Positions 2,078 through 27,683 are shown, counted from the first letter of the stretch. The stretch is DNA of 47,193 bases from an uncultured Spongiibacteraceae bacterium (GCA_965368985.1 CBDUPD010000001.1:1-47193), one strand, 5' to 3'. The notes: a model not told the origin generated them from the sequence alone. Program-made: numbers and translations.

Positions 2078-2750
2078 CTCGATATTCTGCAGGCAAGTGA
2101 TGTTGAAGGTTGTGCTGTGTTGCCCATTGGTTTAAAACATCAGGCGGGACTTCGCTCCAGCTGCTAAAGTCCAGCTGATTTTTAAGTGCTTCCCACGCCC
2201 ACCGGCTGATATAGTCAATGCGTTTTTTATCAAACCATTCCTTACCGCCTAGCGCTGATTCACCTTGTTGATGTTGCAAGGCATGATGTTGATGACACAG
2301 TGGTATGGCTGAATACTCAGGCTTAATGGCGACACCTGCACCATTGGCAACACGACGGACGTGTGCTGCTTCAGTCGGGTGGTGCTCATTGGGTGGTGAT
2401 TGGCAGTAAGCACATGGTTGTTGTCTTAACCACGATAAAAATGCTTGGTCGCTATCAATCACTTGCCAAATGTTAGGCGTACGAAAAAATGCAGAAAGGC
2501 GAAGAGCCTTAGCTTGTTCGCCGTAAGGTGTTTTCGCTTTTTCACCAGCGATAAATTCTTGTTGCATTAGTGCTTGGGCAGCTTCTAAATCCAGCTGTAC
2601 AACAGCGATTGGTGTTCCAGGCTCACCGAGTTGTCGCATCACACTTTCACGATATCGTGGCTCAAAATCAATTTTCAATCGCACAGTACCATCAACCAAT
2701 GTCGTCAGTGTGCGTGATACTGCAGGTATTGCAGCGTTTTCTTCAGTCAT
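2058..2750 (-). CDS. Nin-region protein with a C-terminal Cys/His (HNH-like, DUF968-like) module
   Basis: 230 aa. Contains CAYCQ...HHPTEAAHVRR...GVAIKPEYSAIPLCHQHHALQH. Its position between the replication genes and rusA is typical of lambdoid nin genes. Confidence 0.5.
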   Translation of the reverse strand: MTEENAAIPAVSRTLTTLVDGTVRLKIDFEPRYRESVMRQLGEPGTPIAVVQLDLEAAQALMQQEFIAGEKAKTPYGEQAKALRLSAFFRTPNIWQVIDSDQAFLSWLRQQPCAYCQSPPNEHHPTEAAHVRRVANGAGVAIKPEYSAIPLCHQHHALQHQQGESALGGKEWFDKKRIDYISRWAWEALKNQLDFSSWSEVPPDVLNQWATQHNLQHHLPAEYRGENDNT

Positions 2751-3397
2751 GCGGTTTTCTCCGTTGTGATGGGTAATTGATTAATTAACTTGTGAATGGG
2801 TTGGCCCAGTTGCTGTATTTGCAAAGTTGTATTGCCACCAGACAACATCACTTGTTCTGCTTTTTGTGGATCGCCGATGAGTAGTGGTGGTTTGATAGGG
2901 TAACCATCTTTGCCATTGTCACGTTCAGTAATGCCGCGTAAATATTTTGGATGGCGCTGCGGTGGTTTATTAACAAAACCCATGTAGCGCTTTTGAAATT
3001 CATTGGCACGAAATGGCATCTCAGTTACAGTTACCGAACACAACTTTACCCAGCCCCCCATATCATCAAGTACGGCATGGATGAGTGGATCATCAAAAGC
3101 AATGCTCTGGTAACTTCCGATTCTCGATATGGCTTTTTCAACTTTGGCCCAGGCTTGCAATGCTTTGGTTTCACCACAGCCCTCGATGAAACGCACGACA
3201 TCTGCGGGCTTTGGAAAAAACTGTCCGCAATCAGGATTGTTGATGTGTGATTGAAAAGCTTGTCGCACATCGCATAACTCAAAGCGTTTAAGTGACTGCC
3301 AGTAAATATCTGTTAGTGCCTCAGAGATTGCTTTGCCATACAGCTCTCCGATACCGGCAATCATGGCAGTGAATTTTGGAATATCACTCGGCAACAT
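2747..3397 (-). CDS. Replicative helicase loader-like protein (G39P-like N-terminal domain)
   Basis: 216 aa. Pattern F..MIAGIGELYGK...WQSLKRFELCDVRQAFQSHI...FFPKPADVVRFI resembles loader/inhibitor-of-G40P family proteins. It lies immediately downstream of the initiator gene. Confidence 0.5.
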   Translation of the reverse strand: MLPSDIPKFTAMIAGIGELYGKAISEALTDIYWQSLKRFELCDVRQAFQSHINNPDCGQFFPKPADVVRFIEGCGETKALQAWAKVEKAISRIGSYQSIAFDDPLIHAVLDDMGGWVKLCSVTVTEMPFRANEFQKRYMGFVNKPPQRHPKYLRGITERDNGKDGYPIKPPLLIGDPQKAEQVMLSGGNTTLQIQQLGQPIHKLINQLPITTEKTA

Positions 3398-4319
3398 TAG
3401 CTTCTTCCTCGGCGATTTTTTTATTCATCCAACGCTCTAGGGTTTGTACGTTGGCTTGTGTTTTCCGATCAGCCTCACTGATAGGCCGTGGGGGCTGATG
3501 GTAGTTATGCATGAAGCGGTCGATTTGATCGCCATCGCGTAAGATCACATGCAGGCCGTCATAGCGTTGCCCACGATCGTTATCGCCGATGTTGTGTGGG
3601 GTATAACTGCAACCGGTGATGGCATGACAAAGCTGCTCAACGTTGTAACCAGACTTGAGCGCTTTGCGGATAATGGCTTTGCGTTTGTCATCGAGTTTGG
3701 CGTTAGGGTGATTCATCACTGTTTTCCAATGATCAAAAATCTGACTGGTGGCATTGGTATCGGTTGACGGTCGCGTCACCGACGCGTCAATACTTCCTTT
3801 CCCTATTCCATACTCCATATTCCCTTCCATATTCCCTTCCATATTCCATATTCCCCCCGGGCATGCCCGTGACGCTTCAGCCACGGGTGATTCACGCGTG
3901 GAGCACGCGTCGGTCACGGATGAGTCATCTGCTGTTACATCCTTGTTTTTAGGGATCTTTGTTGTTTCAAAAGGAGTGGATTCTTCAGGCGAAGGAATAT
4001 CACTGGCCATTTCACGGTGATTAATTTGTTGATGACGAGACCAGGAAGGAATAGAGCCGTAAACCTCACCATTTTTTTCGTACTTCACGATAAAGCCACG
4101 CGTGACCAATGCGTCAAGCACGCATGAAATATCGATGTCATCATAGGGAAATACATCTAGTTTTAACCGCCGTGGTCGCCAACGAAATCTGCCGTCTCGA
4201 TCACAGCAAGTAAATAATGCGATAAATGCCAACCGTAGCGGCAATTGGGATGCTATTTCTGCTTCAAATAAATCTTCATGTTTAAATAATTCAGGTTTTA
4301 CCGTACGTATCCTGGCCAT
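3384..4319 (-). CDS. Replication initiator (lambda O analogue) with a conserved phage C-terminal domain
   Basis: Start moved to MARIRTVKPELF (ATG at 4319, RBS GAGG upstream, 8 nt after the upstream stop). The C-terminal FDHWKTVMNHPNAKLDDKRKAIIRKAL...ITGCSYTPHNIG resembles the phage replication-protein C-terminal domain. A repetitive linker (MEGNMEGNMEYG) is encoded by the iterons. Confidence 0.65.
   Translation of the reverse strand: MARIRTVKPELFKHEDLFEAEIASQLPLRLAFIALFTCCDRDGRFRWRPRRLKLDVFPYDDIDISCVLDALVTRGFIVKYEKNGEVYGSIPSWSRHQQINHREMASDIPSPEESTPFETTKIPKNKDVTADDSSVTDACSTRESPVAEASRACPGGIWNMEGNMEGNMEYGIGKGSIDASVTRPSTDTNATSQIFDHWKTVMNHPNAKLDDKRKAIIRKALKSGYNVEQLCHAITGCSYTPHNIGDNDRGQRYDGLHVILRDGDQIDRFMHNYHQPPRPISEADRKTQANVQTLERWMNKKIAEEEANVAE
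3802..3858. repeat. Iteron-like tandem repeats (CCATATTCC core, 12-bp register); candidate replication origin inside the initiator gene
   Basis: CCATATTCCCTT at 3815-3826 and 3827-3838. CCATATTCC at 3839-3847 and 3846-3854. Degenerate copies at 3802-3816. Flanked by the 12-bp palindrome CGGGCATGCCCG (3858-3869) and the inverted repeat GTCACCGACGCGT (3775-3787) / ACGCGTCGGTCAC (3905-3917). Confidence 0.55.
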
Positions 4320-4329
4320 TCTTACTACC

Positions 4330-4740
4330 TCATTCAGTATTGCCAAATGCGCGCATTGCATTGGCTTGTTGAAACCATTGATGAGATTCATCCCATACTA
4401 TTCGCCGACTCACTGGATTGACGATGCGCTCCTGCACACTGCCATTATCGTTTGCTGTCCAAATAATTAATTCCTTGGGCTGACGCTTGCCATGAAGAAT
4501 AAATACCGTCCAGACTTTTGTTTTGATAAGTGATTCCAATGTAATTAGCTGGCCCTTGGGCACAGGCACACCAATGTGCTTGGTTTCATACAATAGAAAT
4601 TGTCCGTGGCGCTCGACCACCGCATCAAAATCCATGGGCATAATGGCGGGGCCAAATGCACCTTTGAGCCAGTCCCAATCAAACAAGCCGTCAAACCCCG
4701 CAGGTTTGGCCCCATCAAATAATCGCTGGTTATTAATCAT
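4330..4740 (-). CDS. Hypothetical early protein, possible PD-(D/E)xK nuclease fold
   Basis: 136 aa. PMDFDAVVERHGQFLLYETKH gives a D...E-x-K arrangement. The gene is tightly packed between the ParB-like gene and the initiator. Confidence 0.45.
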   Translation of the reverse strand: MINNQRLFDGAKPAGFDGLFDWDWLKGAFGPAIMPMDFDAVVERHGQFLLYETKHIGVPVPKGQLITLESLIKTKVWTVFILHGKRQPKELIIWTANDNGSVQERIVNPVSRRIVWDESHQWFQQANAMRAFGNTE

Positions 4741-5539
4741 GTCGCTTACTCCTCTCCATTAAAAAATCGTGTTGCTGTTGGTGAGTCGATGTGGCAATCT
4801 TTGCTGCGAGTGATACTGAAATTGATTTCTTGTCCATTGCTGTTATTAGTGCAGGTATGCCTAGCTGGATAACCTTTTTAGCGCGCCGGTAAGCATCCCG
4901 ATTAGTAAATCCTGCAAGCTTTGCTGAAATATCATCGGATTTGCCTTGAAGATGGGAGCATTTGCGCCTACCTTTTCGGTTACCAAGCCGGTTTTCGTGG
5001 TTGATTGCGACAAAAACTCGGTCACTAATTGTGATAAGCTCATTGAGTTCAGTAATCAGCCGCACACCTAGCAGCAGCGCTTCAGTGTCTACAACAATGG
5101 CGGTGATAGTTGCATGGCCTAATGCTTTGTGCGCTTCAAGCCTTAAGTGACCAGTAATTAAGCTGAGATCAGCACCTACAATGATTGGTTTTGCTAACTC
5201 ATGTTTATCTTGGGATAGGGGAATTTGCTCCCGCTTTATGTTAGTTACCGCAATGTTACGGATCGGAATATTGATGGCTTTGGTGCCATCATTGTCGCGC
5301 AATCGCCGCATTACTTTGTTTGCCGCCACTTCATCAGGGGCTAATCTTTCAGTACTCACACCTGTTATTTCCTCGGTTAAAATTGCATATTGATAAGGAA
5401 TCGCGTCATCACGATTCAGCCAGTTATTCACTTGTGATCGCTTAGCACCAATTCTCTTCGCTAACCCAGCGACACTGCTGCAGAAGCGAATCGCCTCTAG
5501 TAGCGCTCGTCTTTTTGTTTCGTATTTGTCCACAAACAT
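4733..5539 (-). CDS. Cro/YdaS-like HTH fused to a ParB-like (ParB N-domain plus HTH) protein; first gene of the rightward early operon
   Basis: 268 aa. N-terminus: AGLAKRIGAKRSQVNNWL...ILTEEITGVSTERLAPDE (YdaS/Cro-type HTH). Middle: IPIRNIAV...LITGHLRLEAHKALG (ParB/sulfiredoxin-type G-H-x-R motif). C-terminus: KKVIQLGIPALITAMDKKSISVSLAAKIA (ParB/KorB-type HTH). Confidence 0.7.
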   Translation of the reverse strand: MFVDKYETKRRALLEAIRFCSSVAGLAKRIGAKRSQVNNWLNRDDAIPYQYAILTEEITGVSTERLAPDEVAANKVMRRLRDNDGTKAINIPIRNIAVTNIKREQIPLSQDKHELAKPIIVGADLSLITGHLRLEAHKALGHATITAIVVDTEALLLGVRLITELNELITISDRVFVAINHENRLGNRKGRRKCSHLQGKSDDISAKLAGFTNRDAYRRAKKVIQLGIPALITAMDKKSISVSLAAKIATSTHQQQHDFLMERSKRHD

Positions 5540-5716
5540 CCCTTTGCCCTCGTAAATTCCATAACGCTTAATGCGATTCCATTTGGAAACCTCCGTTTTC
5601 GTGGGTCATGGCAAGTTCTGCCACCCATCAATATTTTACTGAGGGCGATTGGCACATATGTGTCACTTTTCCTCGGTACAGTAAGGGCTGAATCAACAGA
5701 CCTTAGGAGTAAAAAT
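5540..5716. promoter_or_regulatory. Divergent early control region (switch region)
   Basis: Non-coding gap between the divergent early operons. Contains a perfect 10-bp palindrome CACATATGTG (5653-5662) and the hairpin TGGCA-agttc-TGCCA (5609-5623). I could not place the promoters with confidence. Confidence 0.4.
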
Positions 5717-5854
5717 ATGGTGATGATTGACCAGATAACCGCGAAGGAGCGCTTGGCTTCGTTGCAGATTAAGCGTGGAGGTTGGCGAAAATGGTTTGGT
5801 TTTTTGATCCCAAAACATCGAATCAAGGGGGTGGAAAATGAGCGCAAAATTTAA
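5717..5854 (+). CDS. Small basic hypothetical protein (45 aa), first ORF of the leftward early operon
   Basis: AGGAG lies 7 nt upstream of the ATG at 5717. Its 3' end overlaps the next gene's start. No recognisable family. Confidence 0.35.
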   Translation: MVMIDQITAKERLASLQIKRGGWRKWFGFLIPKHRIKGVENERKI

Positions 5855-6236
5855 GCAAATGGTGCGTGATTTGGTGGCTGACGGTATTTCACAAGTAGAT
5901 GAACTCCGTGATAGCGATAAGCGACGCTTAACGGCCATATATCTCAAAGAAGCCGAGAAAATTGAACAATGGGAATTTATAACTGAGCCACCGGCTTGTG
6001 AAAAATTGCCGGGGTTTTTAATTGATTTATTGGAGGGTCGTCGTAACGGGACATTAGGGTTTTATTCGCCTGAAATAACGCTTGCCATCACTATGGCAAC
6101 GGCAGCGATTAATTGGTGTATGGACAATATCGAGGAAGAGATCGAAGAAGCCGTTGCTGAACAAAAAGCTGAGCAACGATTTGATCATCGCAAGGGTTAC
6201 AGCAATTACAAAGAGGATTTAGATTATGGCTACTGA
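5838..6236 (+). CDS. Hypothetical early protein (acidic C-terminal half)
   Basis: 132 aa. A purine-rich RBS is present and the 3' end overlaps the ERF start. No recognisable motif. Confidence 0.6.
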   Translation: MSAKFKQMVRDLVADGISQVDELRDSDKRRLTAIYLKEAEKIEQWEFITEPPACEKLPGFLIDLLEGRRNGTLGFYSPEITLAITMATAAINWCMDNIEEEIEEAVAEQKAEQRFDHRKGYSNYKEDLDYGY

Positions 6237-6864
6237 TGCAGGACTAAAGAACTTAGCCACAAAAATGATCCATATCATGAGCGATGTGGAATACATCCAG
6301 AAAACAGGCTTTAACCAATTTCATAAATATAAATATGCAACCGAAGCTGATGTCGCGGCAGCGTTTGCTAAGGCTATGCAGCAGCATAATGTTTTTATGT
6401 TTTCATCGGTTGTAGAGCGACATTGCCAGTCCTATCAGACGCGTGGAAATAAAGAATCCTTTTTAATTACTGTGAAGCTACAAGTGACTTTTGTTGATGC
6501 AGATAGTGGAGAAAGTTTTACGGGTATTTTTTTCGGTGATGGCTCAGATCCAGATGACAAAGGAATTTACAAAGCCATCACTGGCGCACAGAAGTATGCA
6601 TTGATGAAAACATTTTTGGCCGAAACGGGTGATGATCCTGAGCGTGATGAAGCTTCACCCCCACAGCAAAAGACAAACATTGATAAATCCAAATTAATTA
6701 CTTCATTAGAGTCGAAGGCTCGTCAAGGTACAGAAGTATTTCGCGCCGAATGGCGCACGTTAACCGCAGAGCAACGTGATGTGGTGCGCGATAAAACCGG
6801 TGTTTTTCAACAGCTTGCTAGTCAAGCTGATCAATCATTATCACAGGAGGATATTCCACAATGA
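6226..6864 (+). CDS. ERF-family single-strand annealing recombinase
   Basis: 212 aa. Contains NQFHKYKYATEADV and KGIYKAITGAQKYALMKTFLAETGDDPERD, typical of the ERF superfamily. Followed by Gp157 and SSB, as in many siphoviruses. Confidence 0.85.
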   Translation: MATDAGLKNLATKMIHIMSDVEYIQKTGFNQFHKYKYATEADVAAAFAKAMQQHNVFMFSSVVERHCQSYQTRGNKESFLITVKLQVTFVDADSGESFTGIFFGDGSDPDDKGIYKAITGAQKYALMKTFLAETGDDPERDEASPPQQKTNIDKSKLITSLESKARQGTEVFRAEWRTLTAEQRDVVRDKTGVFQQLASQADQSLSQEDIPQ

Positions 6865-7358
6865 ATTTAAGTTTATATAAAGTTGCAGATGAATACTTGC
6901 AGGTGTGTGAAGCACTGCTCGATCAAAAGGATGAGTTGCCCGCTGAAGTTATCGCCAATACGATTGAAGCATTAGCCGGTGACGTTGAGAAAAAATCAAT
7001 TAACGTCGCAGCCTATTACAAAAATCTGCAAAAGGAAGTGGCGGCAATGAAAGAGTATGAAAAAGAAATGCGTGAACGTCGCCGTCGTATTGAAAATCAT
7101 GCTGAGCGATTACGTGAATATTTAAAGTCAAATATGCATCGTTGCGGGATTCAAAAAATTAAAGGCACTGAATTCACTATTAGTATTCGCAAATCACCAG
7201 ACTCGGTTGTAATAGATGATGCGTATAGCTTGCCGCAAGATTATATCGATCACATCGATATCCACCCTGACAAAGCAAAAATTAAATCAGCCATTCAAGG
7301 CGGTGAAAAAGTGGTGGGCGCACATTTGGAAACGGGCAGCAGTTTAATTATTCGGTAG
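6861..7358 (+). CDS. Siphovirus Gp157-like protein
   Basis: 165 aa. Coiled-coil N-terminus (YKNLQKEVAAMKEYEKEMRERRRRIENHAERLREYL) followed by GTEFTISIRKSP. The position between erf and ssb is characteristic. Confidence 0.65.
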   Translation: MNLSLYKVADEYLQVCEALLDQKDELPAEVIANTIEALAGDVEKKSINVAAYYKNLQKEVAAMKEYEKEMRERRRRIENHAERLREYLKSNMHRCGIQKIKGTEFTISIRKSPDSVVIDDAYSLPQDYIDHIDIHPDKAKIKSAIQGGEKVVGAHLETGSSLIIR

Positions 7359-7368
7359 GAGATAAGTG

Positions 7369-7755
7369 ATGAGTAATGGCGTTAATAAAGTAATTTTGGT
7401 TGGCAATTTAGGTGCTGATCCTGAAGTGCGTTATTTCCCAAACGGTGGTGCCACTACCAAGCTCCGTGTCGCCACCAGTGAATCGTGGAAGGACAAGGAA
7501 ACCGGGCAAAAACAAGAGCGCACTGAGTGGCATCAAGTTTGTTTCTTTAATCGATTGGCTGAAATTGCTGGGGAGTATTTGCAAAAAGGCAGCAAGGTCT
7601 ATGTCGAAGGAAGTTTACGAACACGTAAGTGGGCGGATAAGAATGGCAATGACCACTACACCACGGAAGTTATTGGCAAACAAATGCAAATTCTTGATAG
7701 CCATAAAGCATCAACTGATGGTGATGCTATGGCAAACGAAGATATTCCATTTTAA
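7369..7755 (+). CDS. ssb: Single-stranded DNA-binding protein
   Basis: OB-fold N-terminus [23 protein letters not shown]...ERTEWH and an acidic C-terminal tip NEDIPF. The ATG at 7369 lies 8 nt after AGGAG; the ORF track starts at a GTG at 7366. Confidence 0.95.
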
Positions 7756-7772
7756 GGACGGAGGAGCAAATC

Positions 7773-7973
7773 ATGTTGGTATTACAACGATATCCAGGGC
7801 AATCAATTTGGGTTGGCGACAATATTCAAATCACCATTTTAGGCAATTCCAATGGTGTTACACGGGTTGGGATTGAAGCCCCCAGGGAAGTCAGAATTAC
7901 CCGCGACGAGATTAAAGACACGGAGCCACGCCATGAGCAGCGTTCAGTTATTACCCAGACTCATTCGGCTTAG
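7773..7973 (+). CDS. csrA: CsrA/RsmA-family RNA-binding translational regulator
   Basis: 66 aa. MLVLQRYPGQSIWVGDNIQITILG...VTRVGIEAPREVRITRDEI is collinear with the canonical CsrA [24 protein letters not shown]...VRIGVNAPKEVSVHREEI. A strong RBS GGAGGAG is present. Confidence 0.85.
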   Translation: MLVLQRYPGQSIWVGDNIQITILGNSNGVTRVGIEAPREVRITRDEIKDTEPRHEQRSVITQTHSA

Positions 7974-8289
7974 GGATGCTCCAGCCTATTTGGGCATGGA
8001 TCGGCATCGCTTTAATGGCGAGGTACGGCCCAATTTGACCGAAATTCCGGTCGGATTGCAGGGAATTGCCTTCGATAGACTTGATTTAGACGCCTGGGTA
8101 GACGATTATAAGCATCGTAGTGGTCGTCCCGCGGCATCCAACCGTAGGAGTTTGGAAATATGGGACGAAAACGAACGCCGGGGCTCTACAAGCGTGGGGA
8201 TTCCTGGCACATTGACAAGAAAGTCTTCGGACGCCGACTTTGCGAAAGCACTGGCGCTAACGAACTCGAAGAAGCCGAGAAGTACTTAG
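7933..8289 (+). CDS. xis: Excisionase/AlpA-like small HTH protein
   Basis: Start taken at MSSVQLLPRLIRLRDAPAYLGMDRHRF... (GGAG 7 nt upstream). AlpA/Xis-like pattern ending in ...DLDAWVDDY. Lies immediately upstream of, and overlapping, int. Confidence 0.6.
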   Translation: MSSVQLLPRLIRLRDAPAYLGMDRHRFNGEVRPNLTEIPVGLQGIAFDRLDLDAWVDDYKHRSGRPAASNRRSLEIWDENERRGSTSVGIPGTLTRKSSDADFAKALALTNSKKPRST

Positions 8290-9287
8290 CGAGGCGTCTT
8301 GAAGAAGTGAGACAGGCTGCCGTCTATGGCGTGCGGCCTAAGCGGACTTTCAAGGAAGCGGCCACTAAATTTCTGATGGAAAATCAGCATAAGCGTAGCC
8401 TACGCTCAGACGCAGGTAGGCTCAAAGTGCTGGTGGAATATATCGGGAATATGTCGCTAGAGTCCATCCATATGGGATCACTGCAACCCTTTGTTGAGGG
8501 TAGGCGGCAAGATAAGGTTAAGACGCGGACGATTAATCACGGATTACAAGTCGTGCGTCGGATTTTGAATCTTGCAGCCAGTGAGTGGATGGATGAATAC
8601 GGATTAACTTGGTTGGCAAACGCGCCCAAGATCAAGCTCTTACCAGAGCATGATTTGCGCAAGCCCTATCCGCTGAATTGGGATGAGCAACACAAGCTCT
8701 TTAATGAGTTGCCGACACATTTGGAAAAAATGGCATTGTTTGCCGTGAATACTGGGTGTCGGGACCAAGAGGTTTGTCAGTTACGCTGGGATTGGGAAAT
8801 TAAAATCCCAGAGTTAACATGCCTCATGGTGTTTATTATTCCAAGTGAGTTAGTTAAAAATGGAGAAGAGCGCTTAGTTGTTTGTAATGGTACAGCGCGT
8901 TCTGTTATCGATGGTGAACGTGGTAAACATCCCACACATGTGTTCAGTTTTCGAGGCAGACCGTTAGCCCGGATGTTATCAACGGGTTGGCGGCAGGCTA
9001 GAGCTAAAGCTGGTTTAGATCATGTCCGAGTACATGATTTGAAGCATACATTTGGCCGAAGGCTACGTGCAGTGGGTGTGAGTTTTGAGGATCGGCAAGA
9101 TCTTTTGGGTCACCGATCAGGACGGATCACCACGCATTACTCATCGGCTGAGTTGCAGAATCTCTATGAGGCGGCCAATAAAGTTTGTGAAAAGCAACAA
9201 AGTGGGGTGGTACTTACCTTGTTGCGTAATCCAAACTGCAGGCCAGTAACTGACATTAAGCAAGGTGCGCAACTGGTTGCGCTTTAG
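8160..9287 (+). CDS. int: Tyrosine integrase
   Basis: 375 aa. N-terminal arm-binding-type GLYKRGDSWHIDK. Catalytic signature R (CRDQEVCQLRW), HDLKHTFGRRL (H-x-x-R) and LLGHRSGRITTHYS (H, Y). RBS AGGAG. Confidence 0.95.
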   Translation: MGRKRTPGLYKRGDSWHIDKKVFGRRLCESTGANELEEAEKYLARRLEEVRQAAVYGVRPKRTFKEAATKFLMENQHKRSLRSDAGRLKVLVEYIGNMSLESIHMGSLQPFVEGRRQDKVKTRTINHGLQVVRRILNLAASEWMDEYGLTWLANAPKIKLLPEHDLRKPYPLNWDEQHKLFNELPTHLEKMALFAVNTGCRDQEVCQLRWDWEIKIPELTCLMVFIIPSELVKNGEERLVVCNGTARSVIDGERGKHPTHVFSFRGRPLARMLSTGWRQARAKAGLDHVRVHDLKHTFGRRLRAVGVSFEDRQDLLGHRSGRITTHYSSAELQNLYEAANKVCEKQQSGVVLTLLRNPNCRPVTDIKQGAQLVAL

Positions 9288-9358
9288 CCTTGCGGGAGCT
9301 AGGTCCCGCAAAAGTCCCGCAAGGGGTTTTACGGGATTCGGGATATCAAGTGTAAGTC

Positions 9359-9448
9359 CTTGATTTAATTGGTGGGCCCACCAGGATTCGAACCTGGGAC
9401 CAAAGGATTATGAGCCCGCAACGTGAATCATAACCACTTGATTTAATT
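9359..9448. repeat. 12-bp direct repeat CTTGATTTAATT (9359-9370 and 9437-9448) bracketing the tRNA-like core
   Basis: Exact repeat read directly from the sequence. Each copy overlaps an IHF-consensus-like match on the minus strand. Confidence 0.6.
9370..9414 (-). other. 3' half of a tRNA with CAU anticodon (Met or Ile2 type); core of the attachment site, not a complete gene
   Basis: The minus strand reads CTCATAA-TCCTT-TGGTC-CCAGG-TTCGAAT-CCTGG-TGGGCCC-A-CCA, i.e. anticodon loop, stem 3' arm, variable loop, T-arm, acceptor 3' arm and CCA. Upstream sequence cannot form the acceptor 5' arm, D-arm or anticodon 5' arm. Confidence 0.75.
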
Positions 9449-9902: not shown

Positions 9903-10742
9903 ATGAAAAAGCGTGAGGAATTGGAGGGGTTGCGGCACAGGCGTGTTACTTCTGTTGGGGCTAATATTGAAGATGAAGAAATTTTAACCGATGAAGAATC
10001 TTCCGAAGAGGAAGACGCTCACGGTCCATGCGAACGAATTAGCAGATGGATGCAGGATAGTTGCTATCAAATGATGGCGTATACATTTTGGGATAGTACG
10101 GTTAGTGGTTTTAAGCCAGGACGTGTTAGAGCCTTTGCTTTATTGGATATACAGGATGATGACAGATTGTTGTTGGTGGGAGAAGGAAGTGGCTTAGATT
10201 TCGAATGCCTACCAAGAAATGTTGACAAGAAAGCATTAAGAGCATTTGATTTTTCTTCTGAGATGGTACGTCAAAGTAAGGTAAAGGCTAGAAAATATGG
10301 TATTCCTGAAGAAAATTGTTTTGAGGGTGATGCTCAGAAGTTGCCTTTTACTAATGAAAAATTCGATAAAATTTATTTCCCGCTTTCTCTAGCTTCTATA
10401 CCGAATCCAAAGTTGGCGCTTAGGGAAGCAGAAAGAGTGTTGGCACCCGGTGGTAAAATAGTTGTTTTTGAAAAACTAATGGATGAAGGTGCTAATGTTA
10501 CTTGGGGGCGACAGTGTTTGAATGTTGTAACAAGCAGTATCTTTGCTGATATTAATAGAAACTTACCTGGTATGTTTGGCAAACATTCTCCTCTAAAAAT
10601 CACCCATTATGAGTCTTTGGAAAATAAGCTAGATGGGTATTTTGCTGGTTATGTGGGGGGGCATTATCGCTTGGCGGTGGTTGTAAGAGCCGCAGATTAT
10701 GCCGAACAGCCCGCAGTAAAGGCTGTGATTATGCATAACTAA
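9903..10742 (+). CDS. Class I SAM-dependent methyltransferase (UbiE/PmtA-like) with an acidic N-terminal extension
   Basis: 279 aa. Motif I LLLVGEGSGLD, then GDAQKLPFTNEKFDKIY and VLAPGGKIVVFE. The N-terminal ~45 aa are rich in E/D/S (TDEESSEEEDA). Confidence 0.8.
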   Translation: MKKREELEGLRHRRVTSVGANIEDEEILTDEESSEEEDAHGPCERISRWMQDSCYQMMAYTFWDSTVSGFKPGRVRAFALLDIQDDDRLLLVGEGSGLDFECLPRNVDKKALRAFDFSSEMVRQSKVKARKYGIPEENCFEGDAQKLPFTNEKFDKIYFPLSLASIPNPKLALREAERVLAPGGKIVVFEKLMDEGANVTWGRQCLNVVTSSIFADINRNLPGMFGKHSPLKITHYESLENKLDGYFAGYVGGHYRLAVVVRAADYAEQPAVKAVIMHN

Positions 10743-10746
10743 ATAT

Positions 10747-11970
10747 TTATTCTACAGGAACACCAAAAAAGATTACTAATAGCATTAATATTAATAATGA
10801 ACTGAATAAACTTATTTTGGTAAGTTTATTGATGGCCTCTTCAGTTTTACTTGATAAAATTATGGCAATTAAACATTGGATGGCATAATAAATCGCAAAT
10901 GCTTTAGACGCTAATGTAATTATTTGATATATATTGGTTGCCCAAGTTAAAATGATTGCAACAAGACAAACGCCTACAATTCCCTTTTTAATTGTTACCC
11001 TATTATTTGTTGCTTCTGAAACTAAACCTGCACTCCCTAGGGTATCAGCTATTGCAGCACTAAACTGACTCATCATTGCGGCTATGATAAGGAAGAAAGG
11101 AAGTATGGGGGCAACCATACGACACAGTTCAATTGCGGCTACTTCAGTCACGCTATGAATATTATTAAACAACACCATCGCAGAACTCACAAATAAAATA
11201 TAAATCGTGCCTGAAATGATTTGAGCATAACGCATGGTTTTAATACGCATATCAGCTGAATATACTTGACCAAGGTAACGAGATGTCTCAAATCCTTGAA
11301 CGATAATTAATATGCCTAAGAGTCTTTGAAAAGATTCCTGAATAGAATAATGAGCATGTGTTGCCAAGTGCCATTGATCATTCAACCAAAGATCAGTGTT
11401 AAAAACGAAGTGGCCAAGGATCATTGAAAATATAATGATTAATTTTACATTCACAGAATATTCTTCAAAGACTTCAAGCATATTTAAGCCACGCAGCCAA
11501 CCCACAATGCCTATAAAACCTAAGATAGAAGTAGTAATGATATTTTCTAGCAAAGGATCACTAAAGCCAAGCCCACGGAGTAAAAATGCACTCAGTAACT
11601 TTAAATAAAATGCAACAGAAATAATATAGGCGCCACCAAGTACAGGTCGTGATATGGTCTCTAATTTCGTAACAACAAAAGCACCACTCTGTTTTTCCAG
11701 CAAGGGCTCTAAATGTAGGATGTTAAATCGTATAGCGCTGCCAAGAAAAAAAGCGATCACCGTAATTAAACTTATAACTGCAAATGCCCATTTTCCTGTG
11801 GTAAGGATAAGCAAAGGCGCGGATACTAAAAATCCACTGCCAATAATTGAGGCGAGCGGAGTAACAGTTGCCTGCCAAATTTGAGAAGAACGCATTTTTT
11901 TGGAAAAAAACACCAATGAAAGTGAGGCGATCGCTATAATTATAAGGCCGTTTTCATATCCAGCTGCCAC
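10747..11970 (-). CDS. Polytopic inner-membrane permease of unknown family, last gene of the copA operon
   Basis: 407 aa, about 11-12 hydrophobic segments. Only 11 nt downstream of the cupredoxin gene on the same strand. No NRAMP, CDF or ZIP signature that I recognise. Confidence 0.55.
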   Translation of the reverse strand: MAAGYENGLIIIAIASLSLVFFSKKMRSSQIWQATVTPLASIIGSGFLVSAPLLILTTGKWAFAVISLITVIAFFLGSAIRFNILHLEPLLEKQSGAFVVTKLETISRPVLGGAYIISVAFYLKLLSAFLLRGLGFSDPLLENIITTSILGFIGIVGWLRGLNMLEVFEEYSVNVKLIIIFSMILGHFVFNTDLWLNDQWHLATHAHYSIQESFQRLLGILIIVQGFETSRYLGQVYSADMRIKTMRYAQIISGTIYILFVSSAMVLFNNIHSVTEVAAIELCRMVAPILPFFLIIAAMMSQFSAAIADTLGSAGLVSEATNNRVTIKKGIVGVCLVAIILTWATNIYQIITLASKAFAIYYAIQCLIAIILSSKTEEAINKLTKISLFSSLLILMLLVIFFGVPVE

Positions 11971-11981
11971 ACCAATATCCT

Positions 11982-12344
11982 TTATTCAACGATTAATTTT
12001 CCGCGATACATGCCCATCTGACAGGTAAACTCAAATTCACCCTGTTCTTCATTACTCAAAGTTAGTGTTATTGCTTGGTCAATTGGTAACTCTTGACTGA
12101 TATTGAGTTTGTCAAAAATCACCCATTCAGCGCAAGGGCTGGGATCTTTGCGTAGAAATTTAAGATGAGCAGGTTTGTTGTGTTTAGCGCGAATTATATT
12201 TGGACTATAGGTACCACCATCGACAATGATGTCAATGATGCTACTTTCAGCGTATGAAATCGCTTTTGATTTAAAAAGCCAAAACCAGTATATGATTCCT
12301 GTAATAAATAGTATGCCAATAACATTCACCACGATAAAACTCAT
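11982..12344 (-). CDS. Membrane-anchored cupredoxin-like protein
   Basis: 120 aa. N-terminal TM segment, then a C-terminal ...PCAEWVIF...EFEFTCQMGMYRGKLIVE typical of the cupredoxin_1 domains encoded next to copA. Confidence 0.7.
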   Translation of the reverse strand: MSFIVVNVIGILFITGIIYWFWLFKSKAISYAESSIIDIIVDGGTYSPNIIRAKHNKPAHLKFLRKDPSPCAEWVIFDKLNISQELPIDQAITLTLSNEEQGEFEFTCQMGMYRGKLIVE

Positions 12345-12345
12345 A

Positions 12346-14592
12346 TTAGGACTCCTTTACTCGTAGCCAGCGTAATCGATTAGCATTGCTGACAACCGTT
12401 AACGACGACATTGCCATTGCTGCCCCAGCTATCATTGGATTAAGTAATAGCCCTATAAATGGATATAAAATACCAGCAGCTACGGGGATCCCTAACCCAT
12501 TATAAATAAATGCACCGAACAAATTTTGCTTAATATTATTTAATGTAGCTTTGGAGATCGCTATTGCATCGACAACCCCTTGTAACGATCCACGCATCAA
12601 AGTGATATCGGCACTTTCAATCGCGACATCCGTCCCTGTTCCAATGGCAAAGCCAACGTTAGCTTTCGCTAATGCAGGTGCGTCGTTGATTCCATCACCC
12701 ACCATGCCAACAACTTCTCCATTTCTCTGCAATTCTGCAATTTTTTCAGACTTATCTTGAGGTAACACTTCAGCAAAAAAATGATCAATCCCTGCTTGTT
12801 TTGCAATAGCTTGTGCTGTCAGTTGATTATCACCCGTGATCATAACGACCTTTAAGCCAAGCTGTTGCATAGAAGAAATTGCAGCTTGTGAATCCGTTTT
12901 GATTGGATCAGCTACAGAAACAATACCTGCAATTTGTCCATCAGTAGCAAGATACATTGGAGTTTGCCCTTTTGAAGCTAACTGATCAGCAATTTTAGGT
13001 AATTGGAGTAAGTCAATGTCATTATCTTCCATGAGCTTTCGATTACCAAATAACATAGATTTTCCAGATAATTGGGCGCGGATACCGTGGCCTGCTACGG
13101 CTTCGAATGTTTCATGTGACAGTAACGATAAATTTTTATCAGCCGCCGCTTTTACAATGGCTGCTGCTAGTGGATGTTCTGATCCTTTTTCAATGCTTGC
13201 CGCCCATTGAAGTAATGTTGTTTCATCCCATCCATTCACTGGATGCAATGCAGTAACACTCGGTTGTCCTTCTGTAATTGTGCCCGTTTTATCTAAGACA
13301 ACCGTTGTTAAATTTCCTGACTCTTGCAATGCATCCCCGTTACGGATTAATATCCCTGATTCTGCAGCCTTGCCTACACCAACCATGACAGATATAGGAG
13401 AAGCCAATCCTAAAGCACAAGGACACGCTATAATGAGCACTGTCATTGCCGAAACTAACATGTAAGCAATTTTTGGATCTGGGCCTAAATCAAACCATAC
13501 AAGTGCAGCGATCACAGCAATAATCAATACTGAGGGTACAAAAAAAGCAGAGATTAAGTCAGCTAAACGTGCTATCGGGGGCTTAGAATTTTGGGCTTGT
13601 TTTACTAAGCTAACAATTTGTGCCAGTGCGGTATCTTTGCCAATTCGAGTTGCCTTAAAAATAAAGCTACCCGTTTTATTAAGTGTGCCGCCAACGACCT
13701 CATCACCAACATTTTTTTCAACGGGCAGCGGCTCGCCAGTTAACATTGATTCGTCAACAGCAGAATGCCCTTCAGTGATAAGACCATCGATAGGAATTTT
13801 TTCACCAGGTCTGACACGTATAACATCTTCCACGGCAACTTGTTCAATAGGTATATCTAGTTCTTTTTCATCTCGAATGATTCTTGCAGTTTTAGGTTGC
13901 AAGCCAATAAGTCGTTTGATGGCTTCAGAGGTTTTTCCTCGAGCACGCATTTCTAATGCTGCGCCTAAATTCACTAAAGCAATAATAATTGCTGATGCTT
14001 CAAAGTAAGCATGTTGAGCAAGGCTGGGTACACTATTGGGAAATAACACGACAATCATGGAAAATAGCCAGGCCGCCCCCGTTCCCAAACCTATAAGTGT
14101 ATCCATTGTTGCTGTATGAGCCCAAAAAGATCGCCAAGCACCACGATAGAAATGACCACCTGAATAAAACATGACGGCTAATGTTGCTAGCCCAATGAAA
14201 ATCCAAGCAATCTGTCCTGTTGTCGTGGATAAATTAGGGAGGCTATTAGCAAGGCCAAATAAGAATAAAGGAATGCCCAGTATTCCTGCAACAAAAGTTT
14301 TTAATAGTAAACGGCGGTAATGTTGTAATTCCTGATTTTCTTCATTTGTATTGTTTAGTAGTGAAGCTTGATAGCCTATGTCGCTGATTGTGGCAATAAG
14401 TGCCTCATGCTGAGCCCTACCTTTCACAGTAGCTGTTTGATCGGCAAAATTAACAGTTGCGTCTATTACTCCCGCAACTTTTTTTAGCGCTTGCTCAATT
14501 GTGCGTACGCAGCTAGCACAGCTCATACCCATAATGCGTAGATGCACTACTTGTTCTTTATTGTGGTGAATATTTTGTTTGGCTTCTTTCAT
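12346..14592 (-). CDS. copA: Cu(I)-translocating P1B-type ATPase
   Basis: 748 aa. HMA domain GMSCASCV, transmembrane CPC motif ([11 protein letters not shown]), DKTGTIT phosphorylation site, and [10 protein letters not shown]. Confidence 0.95.
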
Positions 14593-15014
14593 GACTGCTT
14601 ACCCTTTTTATTAGCTTCACTATACAAAGTTTCTAAGATAGGACATTGACTAAGCGGGACTTTGCCATCACATGAATTAGCCAAACACTCAAGTGCTTCA
14701 GCAATTTCTTCAAGGATTTTTATTTTTTTTCGCACAGCGCGTGACTTTTCAAGTACGCATTGTTTTATATTTTTGCTGGACGCTTTAGCGTTCTCTTGAA
14801 TATTAAGCAATTCAAGGATCTCTTTTAAGCTGAATCCAGCTTCTTTAGCGTTGGTTATAAAGCGTACACGTTTTAAAGTTTCTTTAGTATAAAGTCGATA
14901 GCCATGTTCACTACGAGCAGGCTTTGGCAGCAGCCCTGAACGTTCATAATGGCGTATAGCAACAGCGCTAACCCCAGCCTGCTTAGCTAATTGGCCTACT
15001 GTCAGCTTATTCAT
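14589..15014 (-). CDS. MerR-family metal-responsive regulator (CueR/HmrR-like)
   Basis: Start moved to [29 protein letters not shown] (ATG at 15014, GGAG upstream). C-terminal Cys pair ([10 protein letters not shown]). ATGA overlap with the copA start. Confidence 0.85.
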
Positions 15015-15044
15015 GGCATTCTCCACAAAATCGTCTACAATGTT

Positions 15045-15085
15045 ATTATATACCTTTACCTTAACATAAAGGTATATGCTATAAT
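15045..15085. promoter_or_regulatory. Divergent MerR-type operator/promoter
   Basis: Perfect 10-bp inverted repeat TATACCTTTA (15049-15058) / TAAAGGTATA (15067-15076). Plus-strand TTTACC - 19 nt - TATAAT (15080-15085) has the long spacer typical of MerR-activated promoters. Minus-strand TATAAT at 15045-15050. Confidence 0.6.
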
Positions 15086-15122
15086 ACCAATTATAGCTGG
15101 TTATTGCCAAAATGGTGAGAAT

Positions 15123-16394
15123 ATGATGATGAAAACACAATTAGCCAAATGTGGGCTACTAATAAGCGTTATTTTGTTACCTTACCAAGGTGCATCCGCC
15201 CATACCTTAACCTTGAAAAAGGTAGAGCAAGTTGCACTGAATACTGCTCCAGAGATATCGCAGTTGCGCAATAAAGAGGAAGCTTTGCGTGAAGCAGCAG
15301 TTGCTGCAGGTCAATTGCCTGATCCTAAATTGCAGGCAGGAATCATTAATGTTCCCACGGACACTTTCAACCTAACCCAAGAAAATATGACCCAAATTAA
15401 AGTTGGTATTGCACAAACTTTCCCTAAAGGTCATTCTTTGTCCATTAAGTCAGAGCAGAAACAGTTACTTGCTCAAGCAGAACAATTCAAGGGGTTAAAT
15501 ACAAAAGCTGAGATTTTGCGTACAGTGCGTAATGAGTGGCTCAATTTGTATTACTGGATCCAGGCTAAGAAAATTATTGAGGAAAATCGAGTCATTTTTC
15601 AGCATCTTGTTAAAGTCACTGAGTCAATGTTAGGCGCTGGAAAAAGTAATCAACATGATGTTTTACGCGCACAATTAGAATTATCTCAGATTGAAAACCG
15701 ACAAATTCAAATTACTGAGCAGATCGATACTGCACGTGCACGATTGGCACGCTGGGTTGGAAAAGCAATGGCGCGTGAAGCGAAGCCTAACCGCTTACCT
15801 CATTGGCCAAAGCCGCCGAGTCAACAGATATTAGAGCATCAAATTAATCAACATCCTCATTTGAGGACCGACGCTACTCTAGTTGCAGCAAGCCATCAAG
15901 GTGTTCAGCTAGCTAAGCAGCAGTACAAGCCTGCTTGGACAGTAGGGCTGAATTATAGCTTTCGCCAAGGTAACAACCCCATGATGGGGGGTAGGCGTGC
16001 CGATTTTATTGGTGCTCAAGTTAGTGTGGATTTACCCATCTTCACAGCCAAGCGACAAGACAAAGAGCTGGCAGCAAGTTTAGCTGAGCTTAATGCAACA
16101 CGGGATTCCGAACTTTCAGATTACCGCAAAATGGTCAGTGAACTCTCTCAATTTTGGGTTGTGTGGCAAAAACTAACCAAGCAAGCTGCGCTTTATCAAA
16201 AGCGGTTGAATCCTGAAGCGAAACAGTACGCTGAGGCAACATTAACGGCTTATCAAAATGATCAGTCAGATTTTCCAACAGTAGCACGAGCGCATGTTAC
16301 CGAATTAAATACACAGTTGGATGGATTAAAAATCGAAGTGGAGCGTGACAAAGCTAGAGTTGCCTTATTGTACTTAGAAGGGGATGACAAATGA
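15123..16394 (+). CDS. cusC: Outer-membrane efflux factor (TolC/CusC family)
   Basis: Start moved to MMMKTQLAKCGLLISVILLPYQGASA (signal peptide, RBS GGTGAGA). Two OEP-type repeats. 3' overlap with the adaptor gene. Confidence 0.8.
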   Translation: MMMKTQLAKCGLLISVILLPYQGASAHTLTLKKVEQVALNTAPEISQLRNKEEALREAAVAAGQLPDPKLQAGIINVPTDTFNLTQENMTQIKVGIAQTFPKGHSLSIKSEQKQLLAQAEQFKGLNTKAEILRTVRNEWLNLYYWIQAKKIIEENRVIFQHLVKVTESMLGAGKSNQHDVLRAQLELSQIENRQIQITEQIDTARARLARWVGKAMAREAKPNRLPHWPKPPSQQILEHQINQHPHLRTDATLVAASHQGVQLAKQQYKPAWTVGLNYSFRQGNNPMMGGRRADFIGAQVSVDLPIFTAKRQDKELAASLAELNATRDSELSDYRKMVSELSQFWVVWQKLTKQAALYQKRLNPEAKQYAEATLTAYQNDQSDFPTVARAHVTELNTQLDGLKIEVERDKARVALLYLEGDDK

Positions 16395-17632
16395 AAAAAT
16401 ATGTAATAGGTATTGTCGTAGTCATCGGAATATTTTTATCGGGTATGCTGGTACAGTATGTGGGGATGAATTCAACTGATTCAGTTAACGACCAAAAAAT
16501 AAAAAATGCAACTTCGAAAAAACCGCTTTATTGGGTTGCGCCAATGGATCCTACTTATCGTCGGGATAAACCAGGGAAATCTCCAATGGGTATGGATTTG
16601 GTCCCTGTTTATGCTGAAACTGATAGTGAGGGGGCTGTAAAAATCTCTCCAACCGTAGAACAAAATCTGGGTGTTCGGACTGAAAAGGTTACTCGACAGA
16701 CCTTGTCAAGGCAGATTGATACCGTAGGTTATGTGATGGTCGATGAAAATAGAATTGAACATGTTCATACCTATACAGATGGGTGGGTCAAACGTTTGTT
16801 GGTGAAAACAACTGGGGAGCATGTTAATAAAGGTCAGTTATTATTTGAGTTATATGCACCGATACTCATCAATGCGCAAGAAGAATATTTGCTTGCAATG
16901 AGAAGTGGGAATAAAGCATTAACCAATGCTTCTCACAAAAAACTCTTGGCATTAGGCGTTGCAGAAAGCCAAATACAAGAGTTAAAGAAAACAAAGAAAT
17001 CAATGCAGCTTGTGAAATTTTTCGCAGGACAAGCAGGTATTGTATCCGAATTAAAAATTAGAGAAGGTATGTTCGTCAAGCCAGAAAAAGACCTTATCAC
17101 GTTAGAAGACCTATCTCATATATGGGTTATTGGTGAAGTCTTTGAGAGACAATCTGGATGGGTTAAAGAAGGCCAACCTGCTGAAGCGAGTTTACCGTAT
17201 CTTCCAGGTAAAAAATGGGTTGGGGTAGTTGACTATGTCTACCCCAGACTTGATCCCACCACGCATACGCTAAAAATTAGACTCCGCTTTGACAATCCAA
17301 AAGAAGTATTAAAACCTAATATGTATGCTGACATTACTATTTTTGCTGTACCTGAGAAAGATGTACTTGCTATACCGCGTGAAGCAGTTATTTACACCGG
17401 AAAAGGCGCACGGGTGATAGTAAGTTTAGGCGATGGGCGCTATGTCGCAAAACCAATCAAGCTAGGCATCGAGTCAGGCAATAAGATTGTTGTACTCTCA
17501 GGATTAAAAGAGGATGAGAAAATTGTTACATCATCACAATTTTTAATTGATTCCGAATCAAGTTTGAAAGCAAGTTTTGGTCGAATTAATTCAGAGAATA
17601 CAAAACCAAAAGACCAACATCAGCATCATTGA
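16391..17632 (+). CDS. cusB: RND periplasmic adaptor (CusB-like)
   Basis: 413 aa. N-terminal TM/signal sequence, YWVAPMDPTYRRDKPGKSPMGMDLVPVY (degenerate heavy-metal-binding domain), HlyD-type barrel-sandwich region, His-rich tail DQHQHH. Confidence 0.85.
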   Translation: MKKYVIGIVVVIGIFLSGMLVQYVGMNSTDSVNDQKIKNATSKKPLYWVAPMDPTYRRDKPGKSPMGMDLVPVYAETDSEGAVKISPTVEQNLGVRTEKVTRQTLSRQIDTVGYVMVDENRIEHVHTYTDGWVKRLLVKTTGEHVNKGQLLFELYAPILINAQEEYLLAMRSGNKALTNASHKKLLALGVAESQIQELKKTKKSMQLVKFFAGQAGIVSELKIREGMFVKPEKDLITLEDLSHIWVIGEVFERQSGWVKEGQPAEASLPYLPGKKWVGVVDYVYPRLDPTTHTLKIRLRFDNPKEVLKPNMYADITIFAVPEKDVLAIPREAVIYTGKGARVIVSLGDGRYVAKPIKLGIESGNKIVVLSGLKEDEKIVTSSQFLIDSESSLKASFGRINSENTKPKDQHQHH

Positions 17633-17645
17633 ATGAGGAGTTTGT

Positions 17646-21336: not shown

Positions 21337-21374
21337 ACTAATAAAATTAGTTTTTAATGTGATGGTAATTTAGA

Positions 21375-21398
21375 GGCACCTGACTTTTTCCAGGTGCT
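21375..21398. terminator. Weak hairpin between convergent operons
   Basis: GCACCTG-actttttc-CAGGTGC. There is no clear U-tract on either strand. Confidence 0.3.
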
Positions 21399-24719: not shown

Positions 24720-24739
24720 CTCTTATGAATCCCTTCTGT

Positions 24740-25909: not shown

Positions 25910-25912
25910 TTG

Positions 25913-27674: not shown

Positions 27675-27683
27675 AACTCGTCC

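Follow-up and report, generated by a model that had tools for sequence, protein, structure and literature searches.

How does a temperate phage without a recognisable repressor maintain lysogeny, and what governs its early genes? The question is posed by a stretch of DNA from an uncultured Spongiibacteraceae bacterium (GCA_965368985.1 CBDUPD010000001.1:1-47193), called the window here (the whole stretch analysed, 47,193 nt, with all positions counted from its start), which reads as a complete temperate siphophage genome opened between the lysis genes and the terminase. An earlier reading made without database searches (the sequence-only reading) had called the element temperate on account of int, xis, and attP, and an integrase, an excisionase-like protein, and a 45-nt tRNA-fragment attP are all present. 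It had also reported no S24-peptidase or CI-like repressor. We scanned all non-overlapping open reading frames (ORFs) of at least 50 amino acids (aa) with Pfam and/or PHROGs, except for a 78-aa ORF in the head gene block (44561-44797), and no S24/CI-type repressor was found among the ORFs scanned. The only other helix-turn-helix (HTH) regulators in the window are a MerR protein in a metal-resistance cargo (14589-15140) and the excisionase-like protein. The gene at the switch itself (4733-5539, minus strand) encodes a 268-aa protein that is a Cro/YdaS-type HTH fused to a ParB N-domain and a ParB-type HTH. We consider it probable, from its operator and predicted promoters, that this fusion acts on both early operons as a Cro-like negative autoregulator.

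The joining of a Cro/YdaS HTH to a ParB-like unit, proposed in the sequence-only reading, was borne out by Pfam, PHROGs, PDB profile searches, AlphaFold2, and Foldseek. The Pfam family YdaS_toxin matches residues 15 to 69 (E value = 2.8e-6; 27.5 bits, slightly under the gathering cut-off of 30), and the PHROG "ParB-like partition nuclease" matches residues 115 to 243 (E value = 3.5e-9). A family profile built from 58 full-length homologues and compared with the PDB matched Cro 3bd1 (6.6e-8), YdaS 8c7k (3.9e-4), P22 Cro 1rzs (3.6e-3), and also XPH1 on the Cro side, and ParB 4umk (2.8e-7), Noc 7ol9 (3.1e-6), and Myxococcus ParB (1e-4) on the ParB side. The same alignment was supplied to AlphaFold2 and yielded a model with a pLDDT (predicted local distance difference test) of 92.5 and a pTM (predicted template modelling score) of 0.88. 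In Foldseek, this model shared about 200 columns with the N-domain and HTH chains of pNOB8 ParB (3.4e-4), Noc, ParB, and KorB, and its N terminus superposed on Cro 3bd1 with a root mean square deviation of 1.2-1.3 A, a target-normalised TM score of 0.80-0.82, and 33% identity. The N terminus thus combines the all-alpha Cro fold with membership in the Cro/YdaS sequence profiles; unlike a small single-domain Cro, the protein is 268 aa long, and its residues 86 to 268 are the ParB-like unit.

On the minus strand, the Cro/YdaS-type HTH (residues ~9-70) lies at 5330-5515, with a recognition helix that starts from KRSQVNNW (residues 33-40). The ParB/Srx-fold N-domain (residues ~86-157, supported by the 4umk profile match) lies at 5069-5284 and contains the P-motif GHLR (residues 130-133; 5141-5152). 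The segment at 4736-5038 (residues ~168-267, supported by Foldseek and the family motif) comprises a linker containing GNRKGRR and then the ParB-type HTH. The family-wide conserved motif is ISERxAIG...GxRQGxRxDL...GFxSxxxYxxAKxV...ISIS. The chain stops with the helix at residues 253-267, the last one of the HTH domain, so that of the "full ParB-like unit" claimed earlier the N-domain and the ParB-type HTH stand but the C-terminal dimerisation domain of ParB is absent. The gene occupies the cro position, as had been suggested: it heads the rightward early operon and is translationally coupled, via a ATGATTAA overlap, to the gene for a 136-aa protein (4330-4740, minus strand), and the genes downstream lead into the replication genes.

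The divergent control region lies where the sequence-only reading had placed it, at 5540-5716 (177 bp), between the fusion gene and an ORF of 45 aa. The perfect palindrome CACATATGTG (5653-5662), previously singled out as the only obvious operator-like element, does occur once but proved to be only the core of a 16-bp operator, TGGCACATATGTGTCA (5650-5665), of the type TGAC-N8-GTCA, in which 14 of the 16 positions fit the ideal palindrome. No further copies (at up to 3 mismatches) and no clusters of half-sites were found in the window. Operators of the same type stand upstream of homologues in six other loci (L001, L020, L019, L007, L012, and L016), and the loci make up five lineages that are ~30-50% identical at the protein level. 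The operator has its perfect form, TGACACATATGTGTCA, in L001 and L020; it is TGACAACCTGTTGTCA in L007, whose fusion protein is 36% identical to that of the window, TGACACAATTGTGTTA in L012 (32% identical), and TGACTCAATTGAGTCA in L016 (~30% identical), where it is set inside a 32-bp perfect palindrome. L019, with a protein ~50% identical, has two operators, both xGACTCAATTGAGTCA, one at the fusion-gene promoter and the other (O2) at the promoter of a divergent excisionase-like gene. Because neutral intergenic DNA would be scrambled at such divergence, the operator appears to be under conservation. The longer palindrome of L016, CAAAAAATTGACTCAATTGAGTCAATTTTTTG, is at 6869-6900 of that locus (-132 to -100 from the gene at 7001), between CsrA-int and the fusion gene of an F-type integrative and conjugative element (ICE).

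Each side of the window's operator carries a predicted -10 hexamer at a distance of 11 nt: TAAAAT for the rightward promoter (5633-5638, minus strand; predicted start near 5626) and TACAGT for the leftward promoter (5677-5682, plus strand; predicted start near 5689). A 27-nt imperfect symmetry at 5632-5683 (I1) is therefore explained by the two mirrored hexamers. A gene-facing TAnnnT is found exactly 11 nt from all seven gene-proximal operators (TAAAAT, TAACCT, TAATCT, TAAGAT, TAATAT, TAAGAT, and TACGAT), whereas TAnnnT would turn up by chance at a given offset with a probability of ~0.03 per site. On the opposite side, TACAGT or TAGAGT occurs at the mirrored 11-nt gap wherever there is a divergent gene, the partner being the 45-aa operon in the window, L001, and L020, the excisionase-like gene at O2 of L019, and CsrA-int in L016. 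In L007 and L012, whose upstream gene runs in the same direction as the fusion gene, the mirrored position reads GTGCTT and the weaker TGTAAT, respectively. If the hexamers are -10 elements, the operator would cover approximately -39 to -24 of both predicted promoters, with its centre at about -31.5. We infer from this position over both -35 regions that the geometry is that of a repressor. The proposal that a ParB-type fusion acts as an early regulator is thus supported, for a role at the predicted early promoters, by an operator and an 11-nt spacing kept in five diverged lineages.

We also compared the operators with the two HTH domains of the proteins. The N-terminal recognition helix [KTN]RS[QN]xxxW always goes with TGAC-N8-GTCA (the window's protein, P0002, P0003, P0004, P0010, P0044, and the L012 protein), and five proteins with SRGR, HRTT, DHST, WQSR, or SGQR at the recognition-helix site have other palindromes upstream. 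P0006 has a C-terminal helix nearly identical to the window's, yet a different palindrome, and the L012 protein has a divergent C-terminal helix, yet an unchanged operator type. Because the operator type sorts with the N-terminal helix and not with the C-terminal HTH, DNA specificity most likely sits in the Cro-type domain rather than in the ParB-type HTH.

The mechanism that we propose would run as follows. A dimer of the fusion would read the 16-bp operator through its N-terminal Cro-type HTH, and one bound dimer would block RNA polymerase (sigma region 4) at both promoters. The rightward promoter would drive the fusion gene, the 136-aa gene, the replication genes, and a Q-like gene; the leftward promoter would drive the 45-aa and 132-aa genes, the recombination genes, CsrA, xis, and int. 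The ParB-like unit would most likely provide an interface for dimers or oligomers, which a Cro HTH does not have on its own, and, in the clade that keeps the motif GxxR, may add a nucleotide-gated closed state, like KorA-KorB fused in cis. Because there is one shared operator and the regulator is encoded in the operon that it represses, such a circuit would be one of feedback and not bistable by itself.

Several points weigh against this account. Negative autoregulation alone cannot account for stable lysogeny, and the replication genes would be co-transcribed with the fusion gene, no terminator having been found between them. A generic sigma-70 scan of 5540-5716 finds no promoter, the -35 regions being poor, and a poor -35 equally fits an activator that recruits polymerase, as in activation by BisD and VirB. 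The lineages that share the operator are not fully independent samples and may have inherited it together with the gene. Conservation within the family is highest in the ParB-type HTH, which must therefore matter in some way that the model does not cover, and the different palindromes at the five other loci are not tied to a common rule.

Both the binding of DNA by the fusion and its action as a repressor rather than an activator are inferred, and the fusion might conversely activate the early promoters, like BisD or VirB, and so make up for missing -35 elements. Neither promoter has a recognisable -35 (a consensus scan found none), the gene stands at the head of ICE transfer operons, and the ParB-like BisD activates ICE promoters (PMC12409273). 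We nevertheless regard activation as quite improbable: an operator centred at ~-31.5 overlaps the site of sigma region 4, and class II activators sit near -41.5. An activator encoded behind its own promoter would also require a separate trigger, and Cro/YdaS-type domains are known as repressors.

A different role is suggested by the ParB-like half of the protein, which might be mainly a DNA-handling factor (for partition, origin marking, or as a nuclease), with the palindrome as a parS-like loading site and any effect on transcription secondary. The ParB N-domain and HTH folds, the PHROG label, a palindrome of parS length (16 bp), and the constant linkage to DUF6475, joined in the window by that to an iteron-bearing replication-initiator gene, speak for such a role. 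The absence of a ParA gene and of a C-terminal dimerisation domain counts against it, as does the integration of the element (integrase and attP) and the presence of a single site only; the loss of GxxR in half of the family counts against conserved catalysis or use of nucleoside triphosphates (NTPs). Moreover, the fixed distance to the -10 hexamers on both sides and a specificity that tracks the Cro-type HTH fit it poorly, and we hold it to be very unlikely. Repression by the fusion of its own operon and of the divergent one remains our preferred reading.

The sequence-only reading had raised the possibility of a nucleotide switch, with GHLRLEA in place of the ParB motif. In our alignment, GHLRLEA (residues 130-136) stands opposite GERRLRA of Helicobacter pylori ParB, so that the middle arginine, and with it GxxR (Box II), is kept as GHLR but the other two arginines of GERRxR are absent. 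No ENxxR corresponding to Box III (ENLQR) follows in the fusion, where the region is variable across the family, and no ParA-type ATPase was found among the window ORFs scanned. Of the features of a canonical ParB CTPase clamp, the protein lacks the full GERRxRA, Box III, the C-terminal dimerisation domain, and a ParA partner. NTP binding depends on the arginine of GxxR in BisD and in the 11 ParB-fold proteins that were tested (PMC12409273, PMC12704722), and orphan ParB-like proteins are often without Box III, their nucleotide use not being predictable from sequence or AlphaFold (PMC12704722). Among the 58 full-length homologues, G130 is kept in 43 and R133 in 29. Because the arginine is kept in only 29 of 58, nucleotide binding is no family-wide requirement; in the window's own clade, binding by the fusion is possible, though we think it rather unlikely. 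The nucleotide-switch idea is therefore left weak, with the retained GxxR in its favour and the missing arginines, the missing Box III, and the losses among relatives against it.

Next, we asked how widely the fusion occurs and in what company. Close homologues are scarce (five clusters among 5.8 billion proteins). An exhaustive profile search returned 2,235 representatives at an E value of at most 1e-3 and 64 at an E value of at most 1e-30, and the full three-part architecture was found in ~60 representatives (50% clustering). In Pfam, the 58 aligned full-length members match the Cro/YdaS-type families (PF15943, PF14549) YdaS_toxin (51 of 58) and P22_Cro (30 of 58), as well as HTH_3 (21 of 58) and ParB_N (PF02195; 9 of 58). 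An alignment-based word search for further homologues yielded almost nothing new, no relatives were found in IMG/VR, the sole match in a phage collection was a partial, ParB-like one in Pseudomonas phage phiAH14a, and the PADLOC defence-system models gave nothing beyond a marginal match to a methyltransferase (MTase)-type ParB. A link to LvrA of the Legionella lvrRABC module was tried and rejected, as the literature held no fitting domain description and a tblastn search with two members against 72,556 plasmids came back empty.

We compared 15 genomic contexts, in most of which the fusion gene leads a co-directional block. Some are of phage type (the window, L001, L020, and L021/L022); these all lack a CI and have the same two genes, for 45 and 132 aa, across from the fusion gene. 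Others (L006, L009, L016, L017, and L018) are conjugative elements with an F-type type IV secretion system (T4SS), in which TraL, TraE, TraK, TrbI, TraV, and TraC lie downstream or alongside. It is in such F-type elements that most members of the family are found, at the head of the main operon, usually together with DUF6475 and often with CsrA. L005, L006, and L007 have a small gene for CsrA or a response regulator before the fusion gene and in the same direction, DUF6475 is encoded 1 to 4 genes downstream in L001, L006, L007, L009, L015, and L016, and CsrA is near the fusion gene in 5 of the 15 contexts (the window, L001, L005, L007, and L016). In L007, a classical repressor with HTH_3 and Peptidase_S24 domains (209 aa) is encoded immediately upstream of the fusion gene, and GerE/LuxR or response-regulator genes neighbour it in other contexts. 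Because the L007 relative adjoins a classical HTH-S24 repressor, the fusion is not a general substitute for CI. It is a mobile-element module common to this phage clade and ICEs, not a phage-specific replacement of CI, and the notion of a distinctive phage switch design falls with the prevalence of F-type T4SS operons and with the S24 repressor of L007.

These contexts bear directly on whether the fusion is itself the immunity repressor of the window's phage, replacing CI, with homeostatic autorepression from the shared operator limiting expression of both early operons in the lysogen to a harmless trickle. The fusion would then have to be inactivated for induction, e.g., by a nucleotide or a partner that alters the ParB-like unit. 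The scans of the window turned up no further repressor candidate, both early promoters lie under a single operator, and L001, L020, and L022 are likewise without a CI between the divergent operons. Furthermore, in conjugative elements a homologue heads the entire transfer operon, often with only an integrase opposite. Set against this are the coupling of the gene to those leading into replication with no intervening terminator, the lack of bistability in negative feedback alone, and the HTH-S24 gene upstream in L007 and GerE/LuxR or response-regulator genes beside other homologues. We therefore regard an immunity role as doubtful and continue to favour Cro-like autoregulation of the early operons.

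If the fusion is a Cro analogue only, the real repressor could be an unrecognised small protein or RNA, for which the candidates are the 45-aa protein, the 132-aa protein, an unannotated ORF, or CsrA acting on the GGA-rich leader of the fusion gene. The two flanking ORFs, one basic and one acidic, are as the sequence-only reading had described them. The first gene of the leftward operon (5717-5854, plus strand), opposite the fusion gene, encodes a strongly basic protein (45 aa, pI [isoelectric point] 11.0) behind a strong Shine-Dalgarno sequence (AGGAG, 7 nt before the ATG). Its length and frame are kept in L001, L020, and L022, and it is 74% identical to the L001 copy. The second gene (5838-6236, plus strand) encodes an acidic protein (132 aa, pI 4.6) confined to this phage clade (four proteins among 5.8 billion, all at least 82% identical), with 44 synonymous and 21 non-synonymous codon differences from the L001 copy. 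Neither protein matches Pfam, PHROGs, NCBIfam, or PADLOC, and the 45-aa protein has no match among PDB sequences either; profile searches thus identify no conventional repressor in these two ORFs and no HTH in the 132-aa protein. A likeness of the 45-aa protein to lambda CIII (RDGWKRLIDIL versus RGGWRKWFGFL) was rejected, since BLASTP against lambda cIII gave no alignment. The 136-aa protein on the other side is the best conserved of the region (89% identity to the L001 copy) and has no family match; a D-x12-ETK pattern seen by eye recalls PD-(D/E)xK or VRR-NUC nucleases as a hint only.

The predicted leader of the fusion gene (~87 nt; 5540-5626, minus strand) is highly conserved in alignments of four relatives, more so than the coding region. 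It contains four conserved GGA motifs (5592-5594, 5578-5580, 5558-5560, and 5539-5541), the last of which overlaps the Shine-Dalgarno sequence and the ATG. Post-transcriptional control of this leader by the phage's CsrA is possible from the motifs. RNAalifold finds no covarying pairs in the leader, and Rfam, searched for regulatory RNAs, returned only the partial tRNA at attP.

A small repressing factor gains from the conservation, basicity, Shine-Dalgarno sequence, and position of the 45-aa ORF, from several window ORFs that have no family assignment, from CsrA near the fusion gene in a third of the contexts compared, and from the GGA motifs, one of them over the Shine-Dalgarno sequence. It loses by the lack of an HTH, ribbon-helix-helix, or other DNA-binding signature in the 45-, 132-, and 136-aa proteins, of a second operator type or an extra operator copy in the window, and of a regulatory RNA by Rfam. 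In addition, the GGA motifs are not evident by eye in the leaders of L007 and L005, and the 45-aa gene would itself be repressed from the same operator. We consider such a factor a tentative possibility. The reading of the fusion as an autoregulator of both early operons stands beside it as the probable one.

The remaining genes of the window are arranged around this switch. On the minus strand, from 5539 down to 147, the fusion gene and the 136-aa gene are followed by genes for a replication initiator (3384-4391; phrog_16167 at 6.6e-77), a DUF6475 protein (2747-3397; DUF6475 at 1.7e-30), a DUF968/HNH-like protein, RusA, and a Q-like protein (phrog_79), and by two lysis-region genes. Within the replication-initiator gene, 4.3 copies of the 12-bp repeat TTCCCTTCCATA (3794-3847) are likely an iteron origin. 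On the plus strand, Pfam and PHROG scans assigned the rest of the leftward operon (6226-9287) to Erf, a Gp157/Gam-like protein, SSB, CsrA (7773-7973; 3.2e-18), the excisionase-like protein, and a tyrosine integrase (8160-9287). Downstream of the integrase gene, the attP core (9373-9417, minus strand) is the 3' 45 nt of a tRNA, recognised by a partial Rfam match, and no complete tRNA was found.

The structural genes (27351-47155) encode a gpA-type terminase, a lambda-type portal, a capsid, a tape measure, and an RcGTA-like tail. The RcGTA-type tail module (30530-35879; DUF2460, a phiJL001 Gp84/BR0599 hub, NlpC/P60, and Phage-tail_3 with an Rcc01698 C-terminal domain) is combined with a lambda-type terminase, portal, and gpZ. 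The tail genes are separated from attP by a heavy-metal efflux cargo of ~17 kb (9903-27337), unusually large for a 47-kb phage, with genes for an S-adenosylmethionine-dependent methyltransferase, a membrane protein, a cupredoxin, an HMA-domain P-type ATPase, MerR, two CusCBA/CzcCBA-type RND systems, and DUF2231. Because metagenome contigs span the int-attP-cargo and cargo-tail joints unbroken, this gene arrangement is real. Metagenome depth leaps from ~4 to 100-490 at the attP core (9348-9421), which closely resembles host tRNA genes, and such tRNA-like pile-ups could pass for prophage junctions; an apparent junction at ~9367 in an isolate run was rejected as a pile-up of host tRNA-gene reads (depth up to 488, 2 to 4 mismatches). 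One metatranscriptome gave a few reads, which were ~90% alike and came from related elements, and it has no bearing on the lysogenic state.

One of the related contexts, L001 (a gammaproteobacterial metagenome-assembled genome; 1-20798 of a 197-kb contig), has a fusion protein 81% identical to that of the window. Its element sits at the 3' end of a transfer-messenger RNA (tmRNA) gene and has a different integrase (442 aa, Arm-DNA-bind). Past the Q-like gene come cupredoxin, ATPase, and RND genes at once, and no lysis or structural genes are seen within 6.6 kb; this element may be a remnant or a rearranged one.

Although much is known of Cro proteins and of transcription regulators with a ParB fold, the Cro-ParB fusion family appears to be undescribed. 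In the searchable literature, neither a Cro/XRE-ParB fusion nor DUF6475 was found to be described, and, as far as its accessible text and supplementary files go, a recent survey of ParB-fold fusions (PMC12704722) contains no Cro/XRE-type fusion. Because most members fall under the Pfam ParB_N threshold, surveys of the ParB fold would miss this family. Its readable operator code and fixed promoter geometry make it directly testable, and a lambdoid phage clade is connected with F-type conjugative elements by the module that they have in common, namely, the fusion gene with DUF6475 and, in many cases, CsrA.

Among known systems, canonical ParB and Noc share with the fusion the N-domain and HTH folds and a 16-bp palindromic site; the fusion differs from them in having no ParA, ParA-binding motif, full GERRxR, Box III, or C-terminal domain and in using a single site. 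The nearest sequence relatives of residues 115 to 256 (33% identity) are phage ParB-MTase fusions and the ParBc-like nuclease of phiAH14a. ParB-only and ParB-MTase proteins have the GxRxGxRxDL linker and the HTH region in common with the fusion, but the phiAH14a nuclease and the ParB-MTase proteins have no Cro domain and are not placed at a switch.

On the Cro side, the likeness to the all-alpha Cro proteins (Xylella prophage Cro 3bd1, P22 Cro, and YdaS of CP-933P, 8c7k) extends over residues ~9-70 in both profile and fold. It includes the position as the first gene of a rightward early operon, divergent from the leftward one, and a palindromic operator over predicted early promoters. Known Cro proteins, however, are single-domain proteins of 60 to 110 aa, opposed to a CI or RacR-type repressor across three-part operators, whereas the fusion has ~200 extra residues, one operator, and no CI partner that we could find.

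Nucleotide-gated control of transcription by ParB-fold proteins is now recognised in plasmids, ICEs, and virulence loci (KorB, PMC11790492; BisD, PMC12409273; VirB, PMC10770331). BisD of ICEclc and VirB of Shigella are ParB-like regulators of horizontally acquired DNA (PMC12409273, PMC10770331), and BisD works in a conjugative element, the main habitat of the fusion family. In contrast to the fusion, both are CTP (cytidine triphosphate)-dependent clamps that load at parS-like sites and activate or relieve silencing at a distance, and neither has an N-terminal Cro domain. BisD moreover needs R95 of its GxxR, the arginine that the fusion family often lacks.

The comparison that comes nearest in design is that with KorB and KorA of RK2, in which a ParB-like protein represses mobile-element promoters and a small lambda-repressor-type HTH protein docks on it (PMC11790492). 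As no sequence-level relation to KorA was detected in the family profile search, the resemblance is one of analogy and not of membership. Both kinds of domain are present in the fusion, and KorB chains 8qa8 and 8qa9 are among its Foldseek matches, but KorA and KorB are distinct polypeptides, each with its own operator (OA and OB), whereas the fusion is one chain with one operator. KorB, which slides over kilobases, also has the complete CTP motifs as well as a domain for dimerisation at its C terminus, whereas the fusion keeps GxxR only and has no C-terminal domain. In the furthest extension of the analogy, which we regard as improbable, the fusion would be a self-contained KorA-KorB clamp-and-latch and the sole immunity and early regulator in a family of temperate phages and F-type conjugative elements. 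Its Cro HTH would anchor it at one operator, and its ParB-like unit would close on a nucleotide or on a partner, possibly the 45-aa protein. Were this so, a ParB-fold switch, rather than a repressor of the CI/LexA type, would hold lysogeny in these phages or quiescence in these ICEs.

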